Under the pieces are notes generated by a model. The model did not search any database. It saw nothing but the letters and a program-made list of their open reading frames with translations, and was not told the origin of the DNA. The translations under genes and the position numbers were made by a program. Of a stretch of DNA of 24,963 nt, positions 10,189-20,491 are shown one piece after another. How positions within the stretch are numbered: position 1 is the first letter of the stretch; each line of letters opens with the position of its first letter. Source of the stretch: a virus; the UHGV virus genome UHGV-0093507. One strand, written 5' to 3'.

Positions 10189-11940
10189 ATGATTCAGGAC
10201 GCTTTTGTGCGCCAGCGTGCGCGGCAACTTTACTGGCAGGGTTATCCGCCCGCAGAAATATCACGTCTGATGGGAATAAACCCGAACACGATTTATGCGT
10301 GGAAAAAACGCGACCAGTGGGATGAAACGCCCCCCGTGCAGCGTGTCACGCAGTCCATCGATGCGCGCCTCATCCAGCTTACTGAAAAACAGAATAAAAC
10401 AGGCGGTGACTTTAAGGAAATAGACCTGCTGACCCGGCAGCTTAAAAAGCTGCATGATGGCCAGCCGGATGTGATGGCCGCAGGAAAGAAAGGCCGGGCG
10501 AAAAAACTTAAAAATCATTTCACGCCGGAACAGATTGCCGCACTGCGGGAAAAAATCATCAGCAGGCTGGAGTGGCATCAGCGGGGCTGGTTTGACTCCC
10601 TGACACTTTGCAGGGAAGCCGGGATACGTAACAGGATGATCCTGAAATCCCGACAGATTGGGGCGACCTGGTATTTTGCACAGGAAGCTCTGCTGATGGC
10701 GCTGCGTGACGATGTGGCGCAACCTTACCAGCGTAACCAGATTTTTTTGTCTGCGTCGCGTCGTCAGGCGTTCCAGTTTAAAAGCATTATTCAGAAGGCC
10801 GCGGCTGAAGTTGATGTGGAGCTGAAAGGGGGCGATAAAATCATCCTCTCCAACGGCGCAGAGCTGCATTTTCTCGGCACTTCTGCTGCGTCGGCACAGT
10901 CCTATACGGGCAATTTTTATTTTGATGAATTTTTCTGGGTCAGTCGCTTTGCTGAACTGCGCAAGGTGGCTGGCGCTATGGCAACCCTCAGCGGACTGCG
11001 GCGCACCTACTTCTCCACACCATCCACCGAAACGCACGAGGCGTACGCCTACTGGAACGGCGACCGCTGGAACGAGAAAAAGGCCTCGCATAAACGCCAG
11101 AGTTTTTCTGTGGACTGGAAAACGCTGCATAACGGGCTTATCTGCCCTGACCGGACTTGGCGGCAAATTGTCACGCTGGAAGATGTGGTTAATCACGGCT
11201 GGAAACACACCGATATCGACGAAATTCGTGATGAAAACACCGAAGACGAGTTCCTCAATCTCTATATGTGTGAGTTTGTCCGCGAAGGGGAATCGGCATT
11301 TAACCTGAATATCCTGATTGGCTGCGGTGTTGACGGATACGACGACTGGAAAGACTGGAAACCTTTTGCTCCCCGCCCGATGGGGAATCGTCCGGTATGG
11401 ATTGGGTATGACGCAAACGGCAGCAGTGGCAACGGCGACAGCGGTGCTGTGTCCGTGGTGGTTCCTCCGGCTGTTCCTGGTGGCCGTTTTCGAACGGTGG
11501 AGACGCGACGCGTTCAGGGGCTGGAGTTTGAAGAACAGGCCAGAGTCATTGAAGAGTTCACGTGTCGCTATAACGTGGAACACATCGGCATTGATGTGAC
11601 GGGCGGGAACGGGGAGGCTGTTTATCAGATAGTGAAACGGTTTTTCCCTGCTGCTATTCCGTACACCTTCACGCTGTCATCAAAACGGTCGCTGGTACTG
11701 AAAATGCTGCAAATAATGCGTGCCGGGCGGTGGGAATACGATCGCGCCGAACGCGAGCTGGTCGCGGCCTTTAACGCCGTGCGTAAGGTGAAAACACCGG
11801 GCGGCTTTATCACTTACGAAACGGACCGCGCGAGGGGGATCAGCCACGGCGACCTTGCGTGGGCAACCATGCTTGCTGTCATTAACGAACCGATTGGCGG
11901 CGAAGGAGAAAACGAGCGTTTCACGGTTATGGAGTTCTGA
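10189..11940 (+). CDS. P: Terminase large (ATPase) subunit (P2 gpP-like)
   Basis: 583-aa ORF; N-terminus MIQDAFVRQRARQLYWQGYPPAEISRLMGINPNTIYAWKKRDQWDE is characteristic of P2 gpP; RBS gggggag upstream; stop overlaps the Q start (TGATG). Confidence 0.9.
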   Translation: MIQDAFVRQRARQLYWQGYPPAEISRLMGINPNTIYAWKKRDQWDETPPVQRVTQSIDARLIQLTEKQNKTGGDFKEIDLLTRQLKKLHDGQPDVMAAGKKGRAKKLKNHFTPEQIAALREKIISRLEWHQRGWFDSLTLCREAGIRNRMILKSRQIGATWYFAQEALLMALRDDVAQPYQRNQIFLSASRRQAFQFKSIIQKAAAEVDVELKGGDKIILSNGAELHFLGTSAASAQSYTGNFYFDEFFWVSRFAELRKVAGAMATLSGLRRTYFSTPSTETHEAYAYWNGDRWNEKKASHKRQSFSVDWKTLHNGLICPDRTWRQIVTLEDVVNHGWKHTDIDEIRDENTEDEFLNLYMCEFVREGESAFNLNILIGCGVDGYDDWKDWKPFAPRPMGNRPVWIGYDANGSSGNGDSGAVSVVVPPAVPGGRFRTVETRRVQGLEFEEQARVIEEFTCRYNVEHIGIDVTGGNGEAVYQIVKRFFPAAIPYTFTLSSKRSLVLKMLQIMRAGRWEYDRAERELVAAFNAVRKVKTPGGFITYETDRARGISHGDLAWATMLAVINEPIGGEGENERFTVMEF

Positions 11941-12986
11941 TGAGCAGAAAAAATAAAAAAGTGCGCATGAGTTCACGCATTGATCTCGCTGATGCGCTCA
12001 GGAAAGAATCATCGCTCAGTGCATTCACATTTGATGGTCCTTATCGCCTGACCGGGCATGACCTGCTGGATAATATGTACTGTGCTGATAACGGGCGGTG
12101 GTATGAAACCCCGGTGGACTGGTACGGTCTGGCAAGAGCTGCCCGGCAAACGTCCTGGCATCAGTCTGCGCTTTACTTTAAGCGCAATGTATTACTCGGT
12201 TGCTACATCCCGCACCCGCTGCTTTCCCGGCAGGATTTCTCGGCGCTGGCGCTGGACTGGTTTGTGTTCGGTAACGCATTCCTTGAGCTTCGTAGCAATA
12301 TGCTCGGCGAACCGCTTAAATTACGGCACGCCCTGGCGAAATACATGCGACGCGGAAGCGATCTTGAATCATGGTGGTATGTGCAGGATGGCAAGGACGC
12401 GTTCCAGTTTCGTCCTGGCAAAGTGTGCCACCTGATGAATCCGGATATTAACCAGGAAATCTACGGCATGCCGGAATATCTTGGCGCATTACTCTCGGCC
12501 AGCCTTTCTCATTCGGCGGACATGTTCAGAAAACTGTACTACGACAACGGATCCCACGCCGGGTGCATCATCTACATCGGTGCAGCGCAGGTAAACCGCG
12601 AAAGCATGGACTCCCTGAAAGAAACGTTACAAGGTGCGCGTGGTGGTGGTGCGTTTAAAAACGTGCTCATCCACGCGCCCAACGGGGGCAAAGAGGGGGT
12701 GCAAATTTTGCCGTTCCAGCAGATCACCGCAAAGGATGAGTTCATGAATGTTAAGGCGGCATCCCGTGATGATGTGCTGGCTGCGCACCGCGTTCCGCCG
12801 CAACTGATGGGGGCAATGCCGGGCGAAAAAAGTGCGTTTGGTGATGTGGAGAAGGCCGCGCGGGTTTATGCAATTAACGAGCTGATGCCCGTTATGGAGG
12901 CCATGAAGCACATCAATGACTGGCTTGGCGAAGAGGTGATCCGTTTTAATTCTTATGCTCTTCTTGATGAAAAAACAGCCCCGTGA
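11940..12986 (+). CDS. Q: Portal vertex protein (P2 gpQ-like)
   Basis: 348-aa ORF, size and position as P2 Q; translationally coupled to P. Confidence 0.9.
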   Translation: MSRKNKKVRMSSRIDLADALRKESSLSAFTFDGPYRLTGHDLLDNMYCADNGRWYETPVDWYGLARAARQTSWHQSALYFKRNVLLGCYIPHPLLSRQDFSALALDWFVFGNAFLELRSNMLGEPLKLRHALAKYMRRGSDLESWWYVQDGKDAFQFRPGKVCHLMNPDINQEIYGMPEYLGALLSASLSHSADMFRKLYYDNGSHAGCIIYIGAAQVNRESMDSLKETLQGARGGGAFKNVLIHAPNGGKEGVQILPFQQITAKDEFMNVKAASRDDVLAAHRVPPQLMGAMPGEKSAFGDVEKAARVYAINELMPVMEAMKHINDWLGEEVIRFNSYALLDEKTAP

Positions 12987-13002
12987 TGGGGCTGTCCTTT
13001 TT
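12975..13002. terminator. Bidirectional rho-independent terminator between convergent Q and the 174-aa cargo gene
   Basis: Hairpin acagcccc-gtgat-ggggctgt (12975-12995) followed by a T-run on the plus strand and flanked by an A-run (T-run on the minus strand). The Q stop codon lies in the loop. Confidence 0.65.
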
Positions 13003-13525
13003 ACCAGAGTTGAACCATTTTCTGGGTGCCGTCAGGCTTGAGATTATCAATTTCAGAGAGAACGTAATATTGAATGGCTTCACAAACGGTGGTGTATGGT
13101 GACTTACCTTCTTTAAGTGGCACGATATTATTATTAACGCGAACCTGTATTTCATCGTTATACATTGCGATCGAAAGAGGAGTATGCACGAAGGCGACTT
13201 CGCCAGGTGTGTCGTCAACCACTGTCTCAATGCTGAAAATCAGTTTTCGCTCATCATTGCCGCCCCTTGCTTTGGGGGTGGCGGCAGGAATCTGAGATAA
13301 AGGCATTCTACGAAACCCTTCAGTTGTTTCCAGTCCGCATGAAACGTAATGCTGGCGATTACCGTCGCTATCCGTCCATGTCTGTGATGGCAGCTCCAGA
13401 GAGATTTCATAAGCATCAACAATTCCCTGGGCAATGCGTACAAGTGGGGTCAGGTCTTCATTGCGGCGAAAACTCTCCTTTACCTGATCTCGTTTTTCTC
13501 GTAACTGCTTGTAATTAATGACCAT
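13001..13525 (-). CDS. Hypothetical cargo protein, 174 aa, no family recognised
   Basis: ATG at 13525 is preceded by GGAGG at a 7-nt spacing, giving MVINYKQLREKRDQ…; the track ORF extends 13 codons further upstream. Visibly AT-richer than the phage backbone; convergent with Q. Confidence 0.5.
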   Translation of the reverse strand: MVINYKQLREKRDQVKESFRRNEDLTPLVRIAQGIVDAYEISLELPSQTWTDSDGNRQHYVSCGLETTEGFRRMPLSQIPAATPKARGGNDERKLIFSIETVVDDTPGEVAFVHTPLSIAMYNDEIQVRVNNNIVPLKEGKSPYTTVCEAIQYYVLSEIDNLKPDGTQKMVQLW

Positions 13526-14136
13526 AAAACAGCCTCCATTGATTTCTTTGCTCGTATTTTGCACTTATGAAGTGTGGTCGGCAAGGTGCCGCATCACTGA
13601 CGCGCTTCGCTTGTCTGCTGCTTCGCCGGGGCATAAAAAATTTATGCCCCGACTCTCCAGCTCCTGTATCAATCAGATAATTTCACGACGTCTTCCGACT
13701 TATCGCTATCATCGACGGCCAGACTCTTACACAATCCCGCCGCGCTGACTGCATGTTCTCGCCGCCTCAGTGCGATTTTGACGGCCTTACCTTTCACCCC
13801 ATCAAATCAGAACACCTTACGTCTTTTTCACGCTCAGCGTGAGCGATACAGCCATTCTGTTGTGTCGCTGCGACATCGTTCATGGAATGCTATTTACCCC
13901 CTGAAACGCGGGCTGTTCCCCCGTCACCTGCGCGCAGAAAAAACGCGTTTTTTTGTGCACGCACGGATCCTTGGCGGATCCAGCCGCCACGCGGGCCGGA
14001 AGGGCAAAAAGTCGTTCAAAAAAATTGTGCAAATTTGTGCACAATCTTGCATTAAAATCAACGTTCAGTGGATGTATTTAAGCGAAAAAAAGATCTTTGT
14101 ATAATTTCGTTCGGTTACGTTGGTGAGAGGTTCTGA

Positions 14137-14538
14137 GTGAAAGACATCACATATTGGAATGATAAAATTCAGAAACAAATTGATAGTTATCCTGAAGCTG
14201 TTCGAGAAAGGATAAATTTTGAGCTTGTTGCACTGCAGAGCGATTGTCCTCATTCTTTCGACAGTTTCGATTTTCCAGTGGATGGTGATGATGCCTTGGG
14301 GGTTCCACCTGCTCAAAAAAAATCAATGCGGGAAACGATTGGTCGCTACGCAATGCAATTAACCATCAAGAGTAGTGATTCTTATCGTATGATTTACGTT
14401 GCGAAATTTGCGGAGTCTGTTTACATACTTCATACATTTAAGAAAAAGACAAATGGTGTGTCAAAAAAAGAATATGAGACAGCTGCCGCAAGATACAAAC
14501 AATTAGTGGAGTATCGTCGTAAAAATGGCTTAAGATAG
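14137..14538 (+). CDS. Gp49-like / HigB-like RelE-superfamily toxin candidate
   Basis: GTG start with RBS gagagg upstream. C-terminal motif YRMIYVAKFAESVYILHTFKKKT…KKEYETAAARYKQL matches the Gp49-like (DUF891) pattern. A TATAAT hexamer at 14100-14105 and a ttgtgcaaatttgtgcaca repeat lie upstream. Confidence 0.6.
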   Translation: MKDITYWNDKIQKQIDSYPEAVRERINFELVALQSDCPHSFDSFDFPVDGDDALGVPPAQKKSMRETIGRYAMQLTIKSSDSYRMIYVAKFAESVYILHTFKKKTNGVSKKEYETAAARYKQLVEYRRKNGLR

Positions 14539-14608: not shown

Positions 14609-14926
14609 ATGGAATTCGTCGTAGTCAAAAACCCTTATGCGTCATCAAGTAGCTCTGTAAATGAAGCTAGTGATAAACACATCCGGGCCCAATTAATGGT
14701 TATTATCCGAAAAATGATTCAGGAGCGCGGTCTTACCCAGCGAGAAGCTGCTGAATTGCTGGAAACAACCCAACCAAGAGTAAGCGAAATCATTAATGGT
14801 AAGTTAGATAATCATACCATTGATCGACTGTTTATCATGCTAAACATCCTGGGGTGGGATTTTAAGTTTGGGTATTCCGGTGGGGTTGTTACTGCGACGG
14901 CAGAACATTCCTGTCAGGTTGCATAA
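14609..14926 (+). CDS. XRE-family helix-turn-helix protein, HigA-like antitoxin/regulator candidate
   Basis: 105-aa ORF with HTH signature ERGLTQREAAELLETTQPRVSEIINGK; immediately downstream of the Gp49-like gene (toxin-first HigBA-type arrangement). Confidence 0.65.
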   Translation: MEFVVVKNPYASSSSSVNEASDKHIRAQLMVIIRKMIQERGLTQREAAELLETTQPRVSEIINGKLDNHTIDRLFIMLNILGWDFKFGYSGGVVTATAEHSCQVA

Positions 14927-14932
14927 ATATTA

Positions 14933-14966
14933 AGCCCCTGACGGGGCCAACCGTCAGGGGCTTTTC
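14933..14966 (+). terminator. Rho-independent terminator after the HTH gene
   Basis: Perfect 12-bp stem agcccctgacgg / ccgtcaggggct with 6-nt loop, followed by TTTT, 7 nt after the stop codon. Confidence 0.7.
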
Positions 14967-15091
14967 AACACAAAGAAATGATAGTCTGAGAAATATCATC
15001 ACCTTGATGTTTTGCATGTACAACTGTGATTCTAGTCAATCCAGGCAGATAATCAAGGTAAAAATCATTCTCAGTAAGGAGGTGATTATGG

Positions 15092-15241
15092 ATGGCTTTG
15101 AAATCAATTGTAAAAAAACCGGCTCCGAAAGGATTTCGTTGGCAGTTTTGCCGATACCGTAAGGTTCGTGGTGATTCTGGTCGAAAGCTGGATGCTCATG
15201 AGTATGGCTGGAAAGCTTGGGCGTTTCTAGTGCGAAGCTGA
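15092..15241 (+). CDS. Small basic, Trp-rich ORF (49 aa), absent from the ORF track, function unknown
   Basis: Strong RBS aaggagg (15077-15083) with 8-nt spacing to ATG 15092. Hand translation gives MALKSIVKKPAPKGFRWQFCRYRKVRGDSGRKLDAHEYGWKAWAFLVRS; a terminator hairpin follows directly. Confidence 0.35.
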   Translation: MALKSIVKKPAPKGFRWQFCRYRKVRGDSGRKLDAHEYGWKAWAFLVRS

Positions 15242-15256
15242 TATTTGATATTTAAA

Positions 15257-15281
15257 AGCATGGCGAAAGCCATGCTTTTTG
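15257..15281. terminator. Rho-independent terminator between the convergent small ORF and parR, possibly bidirectional
   Basis: Stem aagcatggc / gccatgctt with GAAA loop, followed by TTTTT on the plus strand. Confidence 0.65.
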
Positions 15282-15284
15282 TGA

Positions 15285-15599
15285 TCATTCAGGAAAAAAT
15301 TCCTGAATATTCTTTTTTATTTGACTTATATTCTGATTTTTGCAACCAACAGGCTCGCTGTTATGCCAGCCCCATATGTGATTGTTGGCAGGCATATTTT
15401 CCCCCTCTGACCATTCAGCCAGCCAGTAAGCAAAGGCAGGATCGTTTTTAATGAGTGCCAGTCCAGCCAGAAATGCCGCGCGTTGCGCGCGGCTGCGTTC
15501 GGAGGCTGGCAGGCTGTCGAGATAATTACACGCTTCCCGTTCACTCTTGACTGCAGCTGGCTTCAGATAGAAACTTATCCGTCTGGTTGGTGTCGTCAT
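15285..15599 (-). CDS. parR: ParR-like partition adaptor (type II, actin-type partition system)
   Basis: ATG at 15599 with AAGGAG RBS overlapping the parM stop. 104 aa; the N-terminal segment RISFYLKPAAVKSEREACNYLDSLPASERSRAQRAAFLAGLAL resembles plasmid R1 ParR as recalled from memory. The track ORF is longer (149 aa, alternative upstream start). Confidence 0.6.
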   Translation of the reverse strand: MTTPTRRISFYLKPAAVKSEREACNYLDSLPASERSRAQRAAFLAGLALIKNDPAFAYWLAEWSEGENMPANNHIWGWHNSEPVGCKNQNISQIKKNIQEFFPE

Positions 15600-20169: not shown

Positions 20170-20491
20170 GGTGTGGCCTCTTTGCTCGGTGATAGAAATA
20201 GCTCACCATCCAGAGTTGAGAATCTCGGGGTGGCGAGACGTACAGGGTTCTCAACACCGGAGAGCAAAGAATCCGGCCCGACCGAAGTCGGCCCCGTACG
20301 CCCCGCCATAATTCTGACGCGAAAAAGACGTGGCAATACAGTACGCACAAAAAAACCGCTGGCGCGGTTATGCGCTTTGCTCTGTATCGGGTTGAGAATC
20401 CCGGCACCCGTTTTATGAGGTGCAGCGGAAATGTAACCTGACCGATTGCGGCATGGCAAGCGGTTTTTTTGTGTGTGCATGTTCTGGTTTC

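Follow-up and report, generated by a model that had tools for sequence, protein, structure and literature searches.

The virus genome UHGV-0093507, a stretch of 24,963 nucleotides analysed here at its full length (the window), is a P2-like (P88/Xuanwuvirus-type) prophage of Escherichia coli, and it carries a 49-codon open reading frame (ORF) that an earlier note had picked out as an unannotated gene for a basic protein with three Trp and one Cys, equipped with an aaggagg ribosome-binding site (RBS) and an intrinsic terminator, and placed convergent to parR between a toxin-antitoxin-like pair (identified here as a Gp49/RelE-family gene and a helix-turn-helix, or HTH, gene) and the partition genes. 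These particulars all stand on closer analysis, and the ORF lies within a compact cassette (~14930-15282) whose organization resembles that of a type I toxin-antitoxin (TA) locus. The features of the cassette are as follows.

14932..14963, both strands: hairpin 1, a 13-bp G+C-rich stem with loop GGCCAA, just past the stop codon of the HTH gene (14926)
14930..15022, - strand: predicted cis-antisense small RNA (sRNA) of ~90 nt, with a start ~7 nt after the -10 element, near 15022, and an end at hairpin 1
14978..14999, + strand: hairpin P1 (ATGATA / TATCAT), with loop GUCUGAGAAA
15001..15059, + strand: long-range helix P2, in which ACCUUGAU (15001-15008) pairs with AUCAAGGU (15052-15059)
15024-15044, + strand: hairpin P3, enclosed by P2, from covariation and the minimum-free-energy fold
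15056..15029, - strand: candidate sigma-70 antisense promoter, -35 TTGATT (15056..15051), 16-nt spacer, -10 TAGAAT (15034..15029), 9/12 matches
15064..15074, + strand: pyrimidine (switch) tract, with the P1 loop or the Shine-Dalgarno (SD) region as alternative pairing partner
15075-15083, + strand: SD sequence TAAGGAGGT, a 9-nt perfect match
15088..15090, + strand: out-of-frame ATG, better spaced from the SD than the real start, opening a 24-codon alternative frame
15092..15241, + strand: small-protein gene, ATG start, 49 aa, PHROG 33859 family
15254..15280, both strands: bidirectional intrinsic terminator common to the small gene (+) and parR (-)

The signals that frame the ORF are those of a gene. 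The motif AAGGAGGT occurs a single time across the window, 8-9 nt before the ATG, and it or a close variant is kept within the 49-aa protein family. Downstream, the terminator begins 12 nt past the stop codon (16 nt to its G+C core) and consists of an 11-bp stem, AAAAGCATGGC (15254-15264) and GCCATGCTTTT (15269-15279), closed by a GAAA loop and followed by T + GTG; its free energy is -23 kcal/mol (z -4.8 against shuffled sequences), it ends 4 nt from the parR stop (15285, - strand), and a consensus scanner overlooked it because the A/T extension of the stem consumes the T run. The product, MALKSIVKKPAPKGFRWQFCRYRKVRGDSGRKLDAHEYGWKAWAFLVRS, contains 7 Lys, 6 Arg, 3 Trp and 1 Cys, with an isoelectric point (pI) of 10.8. 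In the PGAP annotation of an E. coli chromosome 99.1% identical to this DNA the toxin, the HTH protein, parR and parM are named and the small ORF is absent.

A search for small-protein relatives, which the earlier note had proposed, recovers a widespread family. Megablast of the locus against the PLSDB plasmids returned nothing, and relatives with 49-68% identity on Acinetobacter, Klebsiella, E. coli, Legionella and Proteus plasmids surfaced only in translated searches. An exhaustive HMMER search of 1.8 billion representative proteins gave 65 cluster representatives at E<1e-3, nearly all of 42-97 residues with the domain C-terminal; a 630-aa match (P0037) was dropped as a low-complexity repeat protein. 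Relatives are encoded in 111 species-level genomes and 103 IMG/VR viral contigs; the family ranges across many Proteobacteria and reaches a few other phyla, on chromosomes and plasmids as well as in prophages. A narrower alignment (A3) was used for finding loci, the broad alignment (A2) being too diverse; for gene context, neighbouring ORFs were clustered in a set of 84 genome and plasmid loci, and 80 loci formed the viral set.

Selection on this family acts at the level of amino acids. Of 86 loci, 85 retain an intact reading frame, and twelve orthologues of exactly 49 codons have a mean pN of 0.23 against a mean pS of 0.77 (synonymous sites are saturated), with pN<pS in 66/66 pairs and 1-6 stops in each of the other two frames. 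The family core reads aPpG(F/Y)RWvFCRyRRVr-s-kvLDAh(D/E)YGy-aW-FLV, in which A35, Y38 and G39 are invariant. PHROG 33859 (E 4.8e-24, 85 bits; residues 1-49 against positions 1-55 of the 57 in the profile) is the sole family match, and as it carries no function it names the protein without explaining it; Pfam, NCBIfam and PADLOC gave no matches to the small protein. An AlphaFold model (pLDDT 85) has a small beta-sheet fold. A suspected likeness to ribosomal protein L34 was discarded, since the spacing did not fit and no hidden Markov model supported it. The ORF at 15092-15241 is thus almost certainly a real protein-coding gene. The earlier note had treated a coding ORF and a non-coding RNA as alternatives; conservation bears out the coding half of that choice, whereas the choice itself falls away, as the locus has both.

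The spacer of ~165 nt between the HTH gene and the ORF (~14930-15091) holds a conserved leader of ~115 nt with three covarying helices. It aligns with the spacers between ImmA genes and the ORF in Morganella, Pectobacterium, Citrobacter, Escherichia, Vibrio, Photobacterium, Pseudoalteromonas and Arsenophonus, and its elements are arranged from 5' to 3' as hairpin 1, P1, P2 enclosing P3, an A-rich linker, the pyrimidine tract and the SD. The loop of P1 holds a strand, CUGAGAA (14986-14992), which mimics the SD and pairs as a pseudoknot with UUCUCAG (15068-15074) of the tract; RNAalifold found this pairing unprompted, with compensatory changes, and in the Serratia leader CTGGGA/TCCCAG replaces the CTGAGAA/TTCTCAG of the window. 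In the seed alignment the four helices and the pseudoknot together have 84% of cells paired, compared with 38-53% when the partners are slid, compensatory changes occur in 20 of 28 pairs, and none of 500 shuffles reached the observed covariation.

A covariance model built without the pseudoknot matches solely directly 5' of the ORF and on the + strand, in 26 of the 84 genome or plasmid loci (14 of them outside the seed), in 44 of the 80 viral loci and in all loci with a Gp49 context; the single match in the window scores 100.5 bits (E 9e-24). Across the 26 leader sequences covariation extends to each of the 20 modelled pairs, with 86.6% of cells paired; for P1 alone the figures are 7/7 pairs and 96.7%. 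An alignment-free duplex test of the P1 loop against the tract gave p<=0.05 for 24 of the 26 leaders, among them 12 of the 14 from outside the seed, with a mean duplex energy of -11.4 kcal/mol, while shuffled loops average -4.7 kcal/mol. Only the + strand accommodates the G.U wobbles in P1, so the structure belongs to the mRNA, and the same wobbles rule out a reading of the hairpins as part of a - strand RNA only. We are therefore highly confident that the leader structure, pseudoknot included, is real. Rfam contains no family that matches the window leader at E<=1, or that reaches its gathering score in the window and 18 other loci; PtaRNA1/XCV2162, a known type I system borne on plasmids in Xanthomonas, likewise had no match in the window or in those 18 loci, which include the Xanthomonas locus L030.

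The tract that forms the pseudoknot is also an anti-SD. An overlapping segment, AUCAUUCUC (15064-15072), is able to pair with the SD region GGAGGUGAU (15078-15086), and because the tract is complementary to both the P1 loop and the SD, the two pairings are mutually exclusive. Over the family the duplex of tract and SD has a mean of -7.5 kcal/mol, and the SD has a mean pairing probability of 0.71 against 0.54 for shuffled sequences, with 23 of 77 loci in the top 5%. A simple SD-sequestering hairpin of the form CTCC...GGAG, considered as an account in its own right, is real but moderately supported, the P1 loop being the stronger partner of the tract. Covarying helices, a pseudoknot and an adjacent anti-SD tract together mark this as an RBS which, as judged from sequence, is controlled by mRNA structure.

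A further conserved element of the leader is the out-of-frame ATG, found 2-8 nt 5' of the real start in 45 of the 84 loci and in nearly all of those that bear the leader. The offset is 4 nt in 17 loci and 2 nt in 12; the ATG 4 nt upstream is invariant among enterobacterial leaders, and elsewhere it stands 2, 5 or 7 nt upstream. The peptides of these frames have no conservation, and the ATG may be a decoy start or a coupling device. At three loci (L029, L052 and L066) the upstream ATG begins a mini-ORF of two codons, ATG-TTA-TGA, with a stop that overlaps the real ATG.

On the opposite strand, the leader carries what is best read as a promoter. Of the 26 leaders, 24 have a - strand TAnnnT at a distance of 23-35 nt (mode 28) from P1; a TTGnnn precedes it at a spacing of 16-18 nt in no fewer than 19 leaders by the scoring used, or in ~22 once alternative hexamers in L010 and L012 are counted, and an extended -10 TG is present in 12. 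The -10 hexamers vary (TAGAAT, TATTTT, TAATCT, TATGAT, TACAAT and others) and keep T1, A2 and T6, a pattern of drift that is the behaviour expected of a promoter and not of an RNA loop motif, and the P3 loop together with the invariant CAAG in the 3' arm of P2 is accordingly best interpreted as putative promoter elements of the opposite strand. The transcript predicted from this promoter contains the complements of the P2 5' arm and of P1, being fully complementary to the P1 hairpin, and folds into a stem-loop plus terminator (-39.4 kcal/mol, z -6.0). The stem-loop carries the loop sequence of the switch tract and is thus a predicted competitor of the tract for pairing with the P1 loop. No Rfam family covers the predicted antisense RNA, whose existence we consider probable.

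Hairpin 1, at which the antisense RNA would end, was flagged as terminator-like on the - strand; homologous hairpins lie at the same place in other loci, and in most loci the T run is longer on the - than on the + strand. The hairpin would terminate the antisense RNA and act as a weak terminator for + strand transcripts, and it marks the 5' boundary of the transplanted cassette. Its stem covaries, and its loop keeps GCGCCAAC / TTGGCGC, half of the palindrome TTGGCGCCAA, in the window (14932-14963) and at loci L007, L013, L016, L056, L075, L077, L098 and L101, in either orientation relative to the leader depending on the locus; the hairpin may be a terminator alone, or possibly also a site of recombination or protein binding.

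The strongest promoter-like match in the region, TTTACA-18-CATAAT (10/12; 15114..15085, - strand), falls within the first codons of the ORF and would yield a second antisense transcript over the start codon and the SD. It was not relied on as an antisense promoter, its -35 lying in variable N-terminal codons and being unconserved. On the + strand no convincing promoter was found, either in the segment from hairpin 1 to P1 or 5' of the toxin gene.

Relatives of the small gene are found in a recurrent genomic setting. In the genome and plasmid set, 45 of the 84 loci have a gene for a ~177-aa HExxH peptidase immediately 5' of the small gene and in the same orientation (median gap 142 nt), preceded in 44 of them by a gene for a ~121-aa XRE-type HTH protein. 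By Pfam the two proteins of this canonical pair are Peptidase_M78 (IrrE-like) and HTH_3, and their best PADLOC models are capP (1.3e-16) and capH (1.7e-13), respectively. A ~193-aa protein of PHROG 2602 is the upstream partner in a further 13 genome loci, and a same-strand partner is present overall in 45+13+4 genome loci and ~75 of the 80 viral loci. The latter comprise 52-54 with XRE plus ImmA, 18 with the PHROG 2602 protein and 3 with Gp49 plus HTH_37; no upstream partner was found in 5. The window represents the rare third class, and the nearest homologues of its small protein, in Serratia (86% identity) and Pantoea (73%), occur in the same three-gene arrangement, which there lies at the ends of unrelated prophages. 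Among Mu-like phages the position of the gene is between mor and the endolysin gene, and one group of temperate phages has it as the last gene of the immunity operon. Most family loci have a hairpin after the stop codon, and 49 of 82 pass strict criteria for hairpin plus T run; from this and from the upstream partners it follows that small HTH-containing modules on mobile elements end with this gene.

Two of these settings have features of their own. At the loci with a PHROG 2602 partner (L029, L042, L047, L050-L052, L055, L058, L063-L066 and the 18 viral loci; gap ~119 nt) the R1 leader is missing and other SD-sequestering stems are seen, for example CATCAATC...GAGGTTGATG, which suggests from sequence that they carry a second leader class. 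On ColE1-type plasmids of 4-9 kb the gene belongs to a small operon oriented divergently from the HTH-ImmA pair. In E. coli and Klebsiella plasmids of this type (L003 4170-4882, L086 and L087) an unannotated family member lies between genes of 60 and 59 aa, the operon is divergent from an HTH gene and a 254-aa ImmA/IrrE gene, and the promoter region common to both operons contains operator-like tandem inverted repeats (GGTATTGCCATAGCAATAC).

The wider neighbourhood in the window comprises the following genes.

10189-12986: terminase and portal genes
14137-14538, + strand: Gp49/RelE-family (HigB-like) toxin gene (Pfam Gp49 3e-13; PGAP name)
14609-14926, + strand: HTH_37 (HigA-like) gene (Pfam HTH_37 8e-19; PGAP name)

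The toxin gene followed by the HTH gene, on the same strand and directly 5' of the small gene, forms a HigBA-type arrangement. The HTH_37 protein and the canonical XRE protein are unrelated, and the genes upstream in the window include no ImmA/IrrE peptidase and form no module of the CapH/CapP type. Rightward of the small ORF, parR, parM and a replication endonuclease gene lie on the - strand, convergent to it. DNA similarity to P88-like phages starts only at ~15404 (or later, at 15455 or 15533), and for this reason we regard the toxin/HTH pair and the small ORF as cargo in a variable region; the C-terminal part of parR (15285-15404) and the common terminator belong on the same grounds to the variable segment and not to the conserved partition module. 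The cassette is carried by 2 of 5,426 complete E. coli genomes; one lysogen with this prophage is strain IGC_RcoliRes_1.1 (NZ_CP054662).

Other observations concern this neighbourhood. The ~570 nt at 13565-14136, between a PHROG 5091 gene (13001-13564, - strand) and the toxin gene, contain no convincing ORF, no Rfam match and no consensus promoter for the toxin operon. The sole promoter-like site near the toxin gene (14141-14168) falls within its annotated start, and the Gp49 domain opens at residue 58, so that the true start of this 133-aa ORF may lie further downstream. Two Rfam families score above their gathering thresholds elsewhere in the window, the C4 antisense RNA at 20226-20313 (- strand, 78.5 bits) and isrK at 20349-20423 (- strand, 62.8 bits); together these matches point to a P1/P7-type c4-icd-ant immunity region inside the P2-like prophage. 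At locus L016 a C4 RNA lies 1.4 kb upstream of the small gene.

Taken together, these features lead us to propose that the cassette is organized like a type I TA locus that encodes a soluble, very basic effector, a combined model to which we assign a probability of roughly 55%. In the ON state the pseudoknot would occupy the anti-SD tract and leave the strong SD free; pairing of the antisense RNA with P1 and P2 would block the pseudoknot, and the tract would then close the SD (OFF). Because no + strand promoter is seen between hairpin 1 and P1, the mRNA probably arises by read-through from the upstream operon, which would be autoregulated by its own HTH protein (HigB-like/HTH here, XRE-ImmA/IrrE in most relatives). 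Synthesis of the protein would await strong derepression of that operon, with the mRNA in excess over the antisense RNA, and the better-spaced out-of-frame ATG may damp initiation further. The most speculative step is that the product would be a growth-inhibiting effector which binds nucleic acid or another polyanion and does not act on the membrane. That the effector harms growth is suggested because many layers of repression typify toxic products, because the family travels on plasmids and prophages, and because the gene holds the position of the RelE or PIN toxin in the predicted COG2856-Xre three-component systems. The small protein has no homology to known toxins. A toxin-like role, a function we infer, is put forward tentatively, a little short of even odds; a regulatory, anti-defence or anti-repressor role is possible. 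The toxin guess of the earlier note thus gains support from the type I anatomy (pseudoknotted leader, anti-SD tract, predicted antisense RNA, possible decoy ATG and flanking terminators), and is not thereby proven.

Several observations weigh against this proposal. In the window itself the pairing of anti-SD and SD is moderate (-6.3 kcal/mol; probability 0.65, not significant alone). About half of the family loci lack the leader and have other arrangements, so that gating of this kind is not family-wide. The gene has no visible mRNA promoter of its own, unlike typical type I toxin genes, and hairpin 1 may stop most of the read-through on which expression would depend. The hydrophobic membrane peptide that is typical, though not universal, for type I toxins is absent: the protein has a grand average of hydropathy of -0.69 and a top 15-residue value of 0.16 (family median 0.18), and family pI values run from 9.0 to 10.8. 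The structure model, finally, matches nothing solved in the Protein Data Bank, which leaves the biochemical activity a guess.

Features by which type I systems are recognized are present in a small gene (49 codons, where fewer than 60 is usual) under purifying selection and in sequence signals for an antisense sRNA that would overlap the mRNA. The closest experimentally studied case, by analogy, is timPR (RyfA/TimP-TimR) of enterobacteria, which resembles the cassette in having a small ORF after a structured 5' untranslated region (UTR), a sequesterable SD, a pseudoknot with an upstream hairpin and an antisense target, which in the cassette is a predicted one. There the leader pseudoknot is essential for translation of the toxin, and binding of the antisense RNA TimR disrupts it (PMC11228461, PMC13000454). 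The two are unrelated in sequence or by Rfam, the leader having no RyfA match and the protein no TimP-type Pfam or NCBIfam match. They differ also in that TimP is a small inner-membrane toxin whereas the window protein is basic and soluble, in that TimR is divergently encoded and overlaps partly whereas the sRNA predicted here is fully cis-antisense to the leader, and in that the window gene is distal in an operon without a visible promoter of its own.

In tisB/istR-1 and other SOS-linked type I systems (dinQ/agrB, symE/symR), stress induces a toxin mRNA that a constitutive antisense RNA counteracts at the 5' UTR, far from the start codon, and leader structure or a pseudoknot governs ribosome access (PMC7708055, PMC5066626). 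Those mRNAs, however, need nucleolytic processing and a standby site, and the window leader has no sign of processing; nor is the window protein homologous to their products (no Pfam or NCBIfam match). A membrane peptide is not obligatory in type I systems, SymE and RalR being soluble toxins. A comparable switch controls repZ (repA) of IncI-alpha/IncB plasmids, where a pseudoknot between a hairpin loop and a tract adjacent to the RBS activates translation and the cis-antisense Inc RNA (RNAI) blocks it; the product is a replication initiator, and control is exerted through a translated leader peptide. The window product, in contrast, has 49 aa, and coupling to a leader peptide is not evident, though the out-of-frame ATG is conserved.

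With respect to gene order, the family resembles XRE-ImmA/IrrE systems (COG2856; CapH/CapP, ImmR/ImmA, DdrO/IrrE) in the XRE HTH and M78 peptidase genes that lie upstream in about two thirds of loci. Makarova et al. 2009 (PMC2701414) predicted that COG2856-Xre pairs belong to three-component systems, completed by a further toxin or by a component of unknown kind. The divergent layout of CapH/CapP is found only on the small ColE1-type plasmids; at the canonical loci the small gene is instead downstream on the same strand, and in the window the upstream pair is a Gp49/RelE toxin and an unrelated HTH_37 protein, with the peptidase absent.

Among other explanations for the cassette, the one with most to be said for it, though we think it unlikely, makes the protein a small regulator instead of a toxin: as a third component that binds nucleic acid it would tune the upstream module, and the RNA switch would serve only to limit its dose. 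Its targets might be the hairpins of its own leader, in a form of autoregulation, or else one of the upstream proteins (the HTH repressor, the ImmA/IrrE peptidase or the HigB-like toxin). Such a role would fit its constant last place after HTH-containing two-gene modules of two unrelated kinds, its location in the immunity operon of a temperate phage, a very basic, aromatic-rich composition like that of nucleic-acid binders, and conserved P1 and P3 loops that could be protein-binding sites. Those loops, however, have better explanations, P1 in the pseudoknot and P3, with CAAG, in the antisense -10 and -35; a common specific partner is moreover improbable when the window HTH protein is unrelated to canonical XRE and the gene is also found without either module. 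A peptide that a prophage or plasmid under stress would express to counter a defence system or repressor of its host or of a competitor seems to us distinctly improbable. The protein is small and occurs on phages, prophages and plasmids, here as part of the variable cargo that a P2-like prophage carries between its portal and replication genes, and it is a frequent neighbour of XRE-ImmA/IrrE pairs, which control the induction of mobile elements; yet it is transcribed with operons of the lysogeny or maintenance type and not with early genes, tight antisense and structural repression would be unusual where action is needed at once on entry, and the gene is chromosomal in many taxa with no obvious target system nearby. 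The lack of a PADLOC match counts only weakly here, since PADLOC models cover defence. The anti-defence guess of the earlier note therefore finds nothing specific in its support: neither a PADLOC match nor an early or leading-region context.

Two further readings would dispense with the RNAs or with the protein, respectively. If the upstream inverted repeats were HTH operators or plain terminators and the antisense promoter a chance match, the palindromic form of P1 and hairpin 1 and their proximity to HTH genes would be accounted for, and palindromes that co-evolve with a repressor can indeed imitate stem covariation. An operator cannot explain, however, why the loop and the tract covary as non-palindromic segments ~80 nt apart, and the confinement of G.U wobbles to the + strand, the same leader after two unrelated HTH proteins and a -35/-10 spacing kept despite sequence drift make this reading very improbable. 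That the ORF is untranslated and the RNAs alone matter is scarcely credible. It is below the usual annotation cut-offs and omitted by PGAP, and the out-of-frame ATG has the better SD spacing; against this stand the strong purifying selection on amino acids with saturated synonymous sites, the residues invariant across phyla, a frame intact at 85 of 86 loci where other frames have 1-6 stops, and a confident fold prediction.

Returning to the type I-like organization that we favour, its signals in sequence make it somewhat probable that this antisense- and pseudoknot-gated small gene is a hidden third gene of two kinds of HTH-containing modules. A bolder version, which we hold possible but rather doubtful, is that the cassette represents an undescribed type I-like TA family in which the toxin is a soluble basic mini-protein with a new fold, at once the missing third component of XRE-ImmA/IrrE (COG2856-Xre) and of HigBA-like modules, and the leader and the antisense RNA are two new RNA families. 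Loss of the HTH repressor, through proteolysis after DNA damage or phage attack or through loss of the element, would then produce a flood of leader-ORF mRNA that exceeds the antisense RNA, upon which the pseudoknot would form and a second-line effector would be released.

The protein family and the two RNAs are undescribed and widespread, while the general principle of their gating is already known. The family has been overlooked by annotation pipelines, with no Pfam, NCBIfam, Rfam or structural assignment. If the proposal is true, it adds a non-membrane class of toxin to type I systems and a second independent case of pseudoknot-dependent translation switched off by an antisense RNA, and it offers a testable output for the very common XRE-ImmA/IrrE pairs. 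It would also mean that seeming two-gene TA or repressor-protease modules can conceal a third, RNA-gated gene, a point of consequence for work that deletes or transplants such modules or scores them as defence systems.

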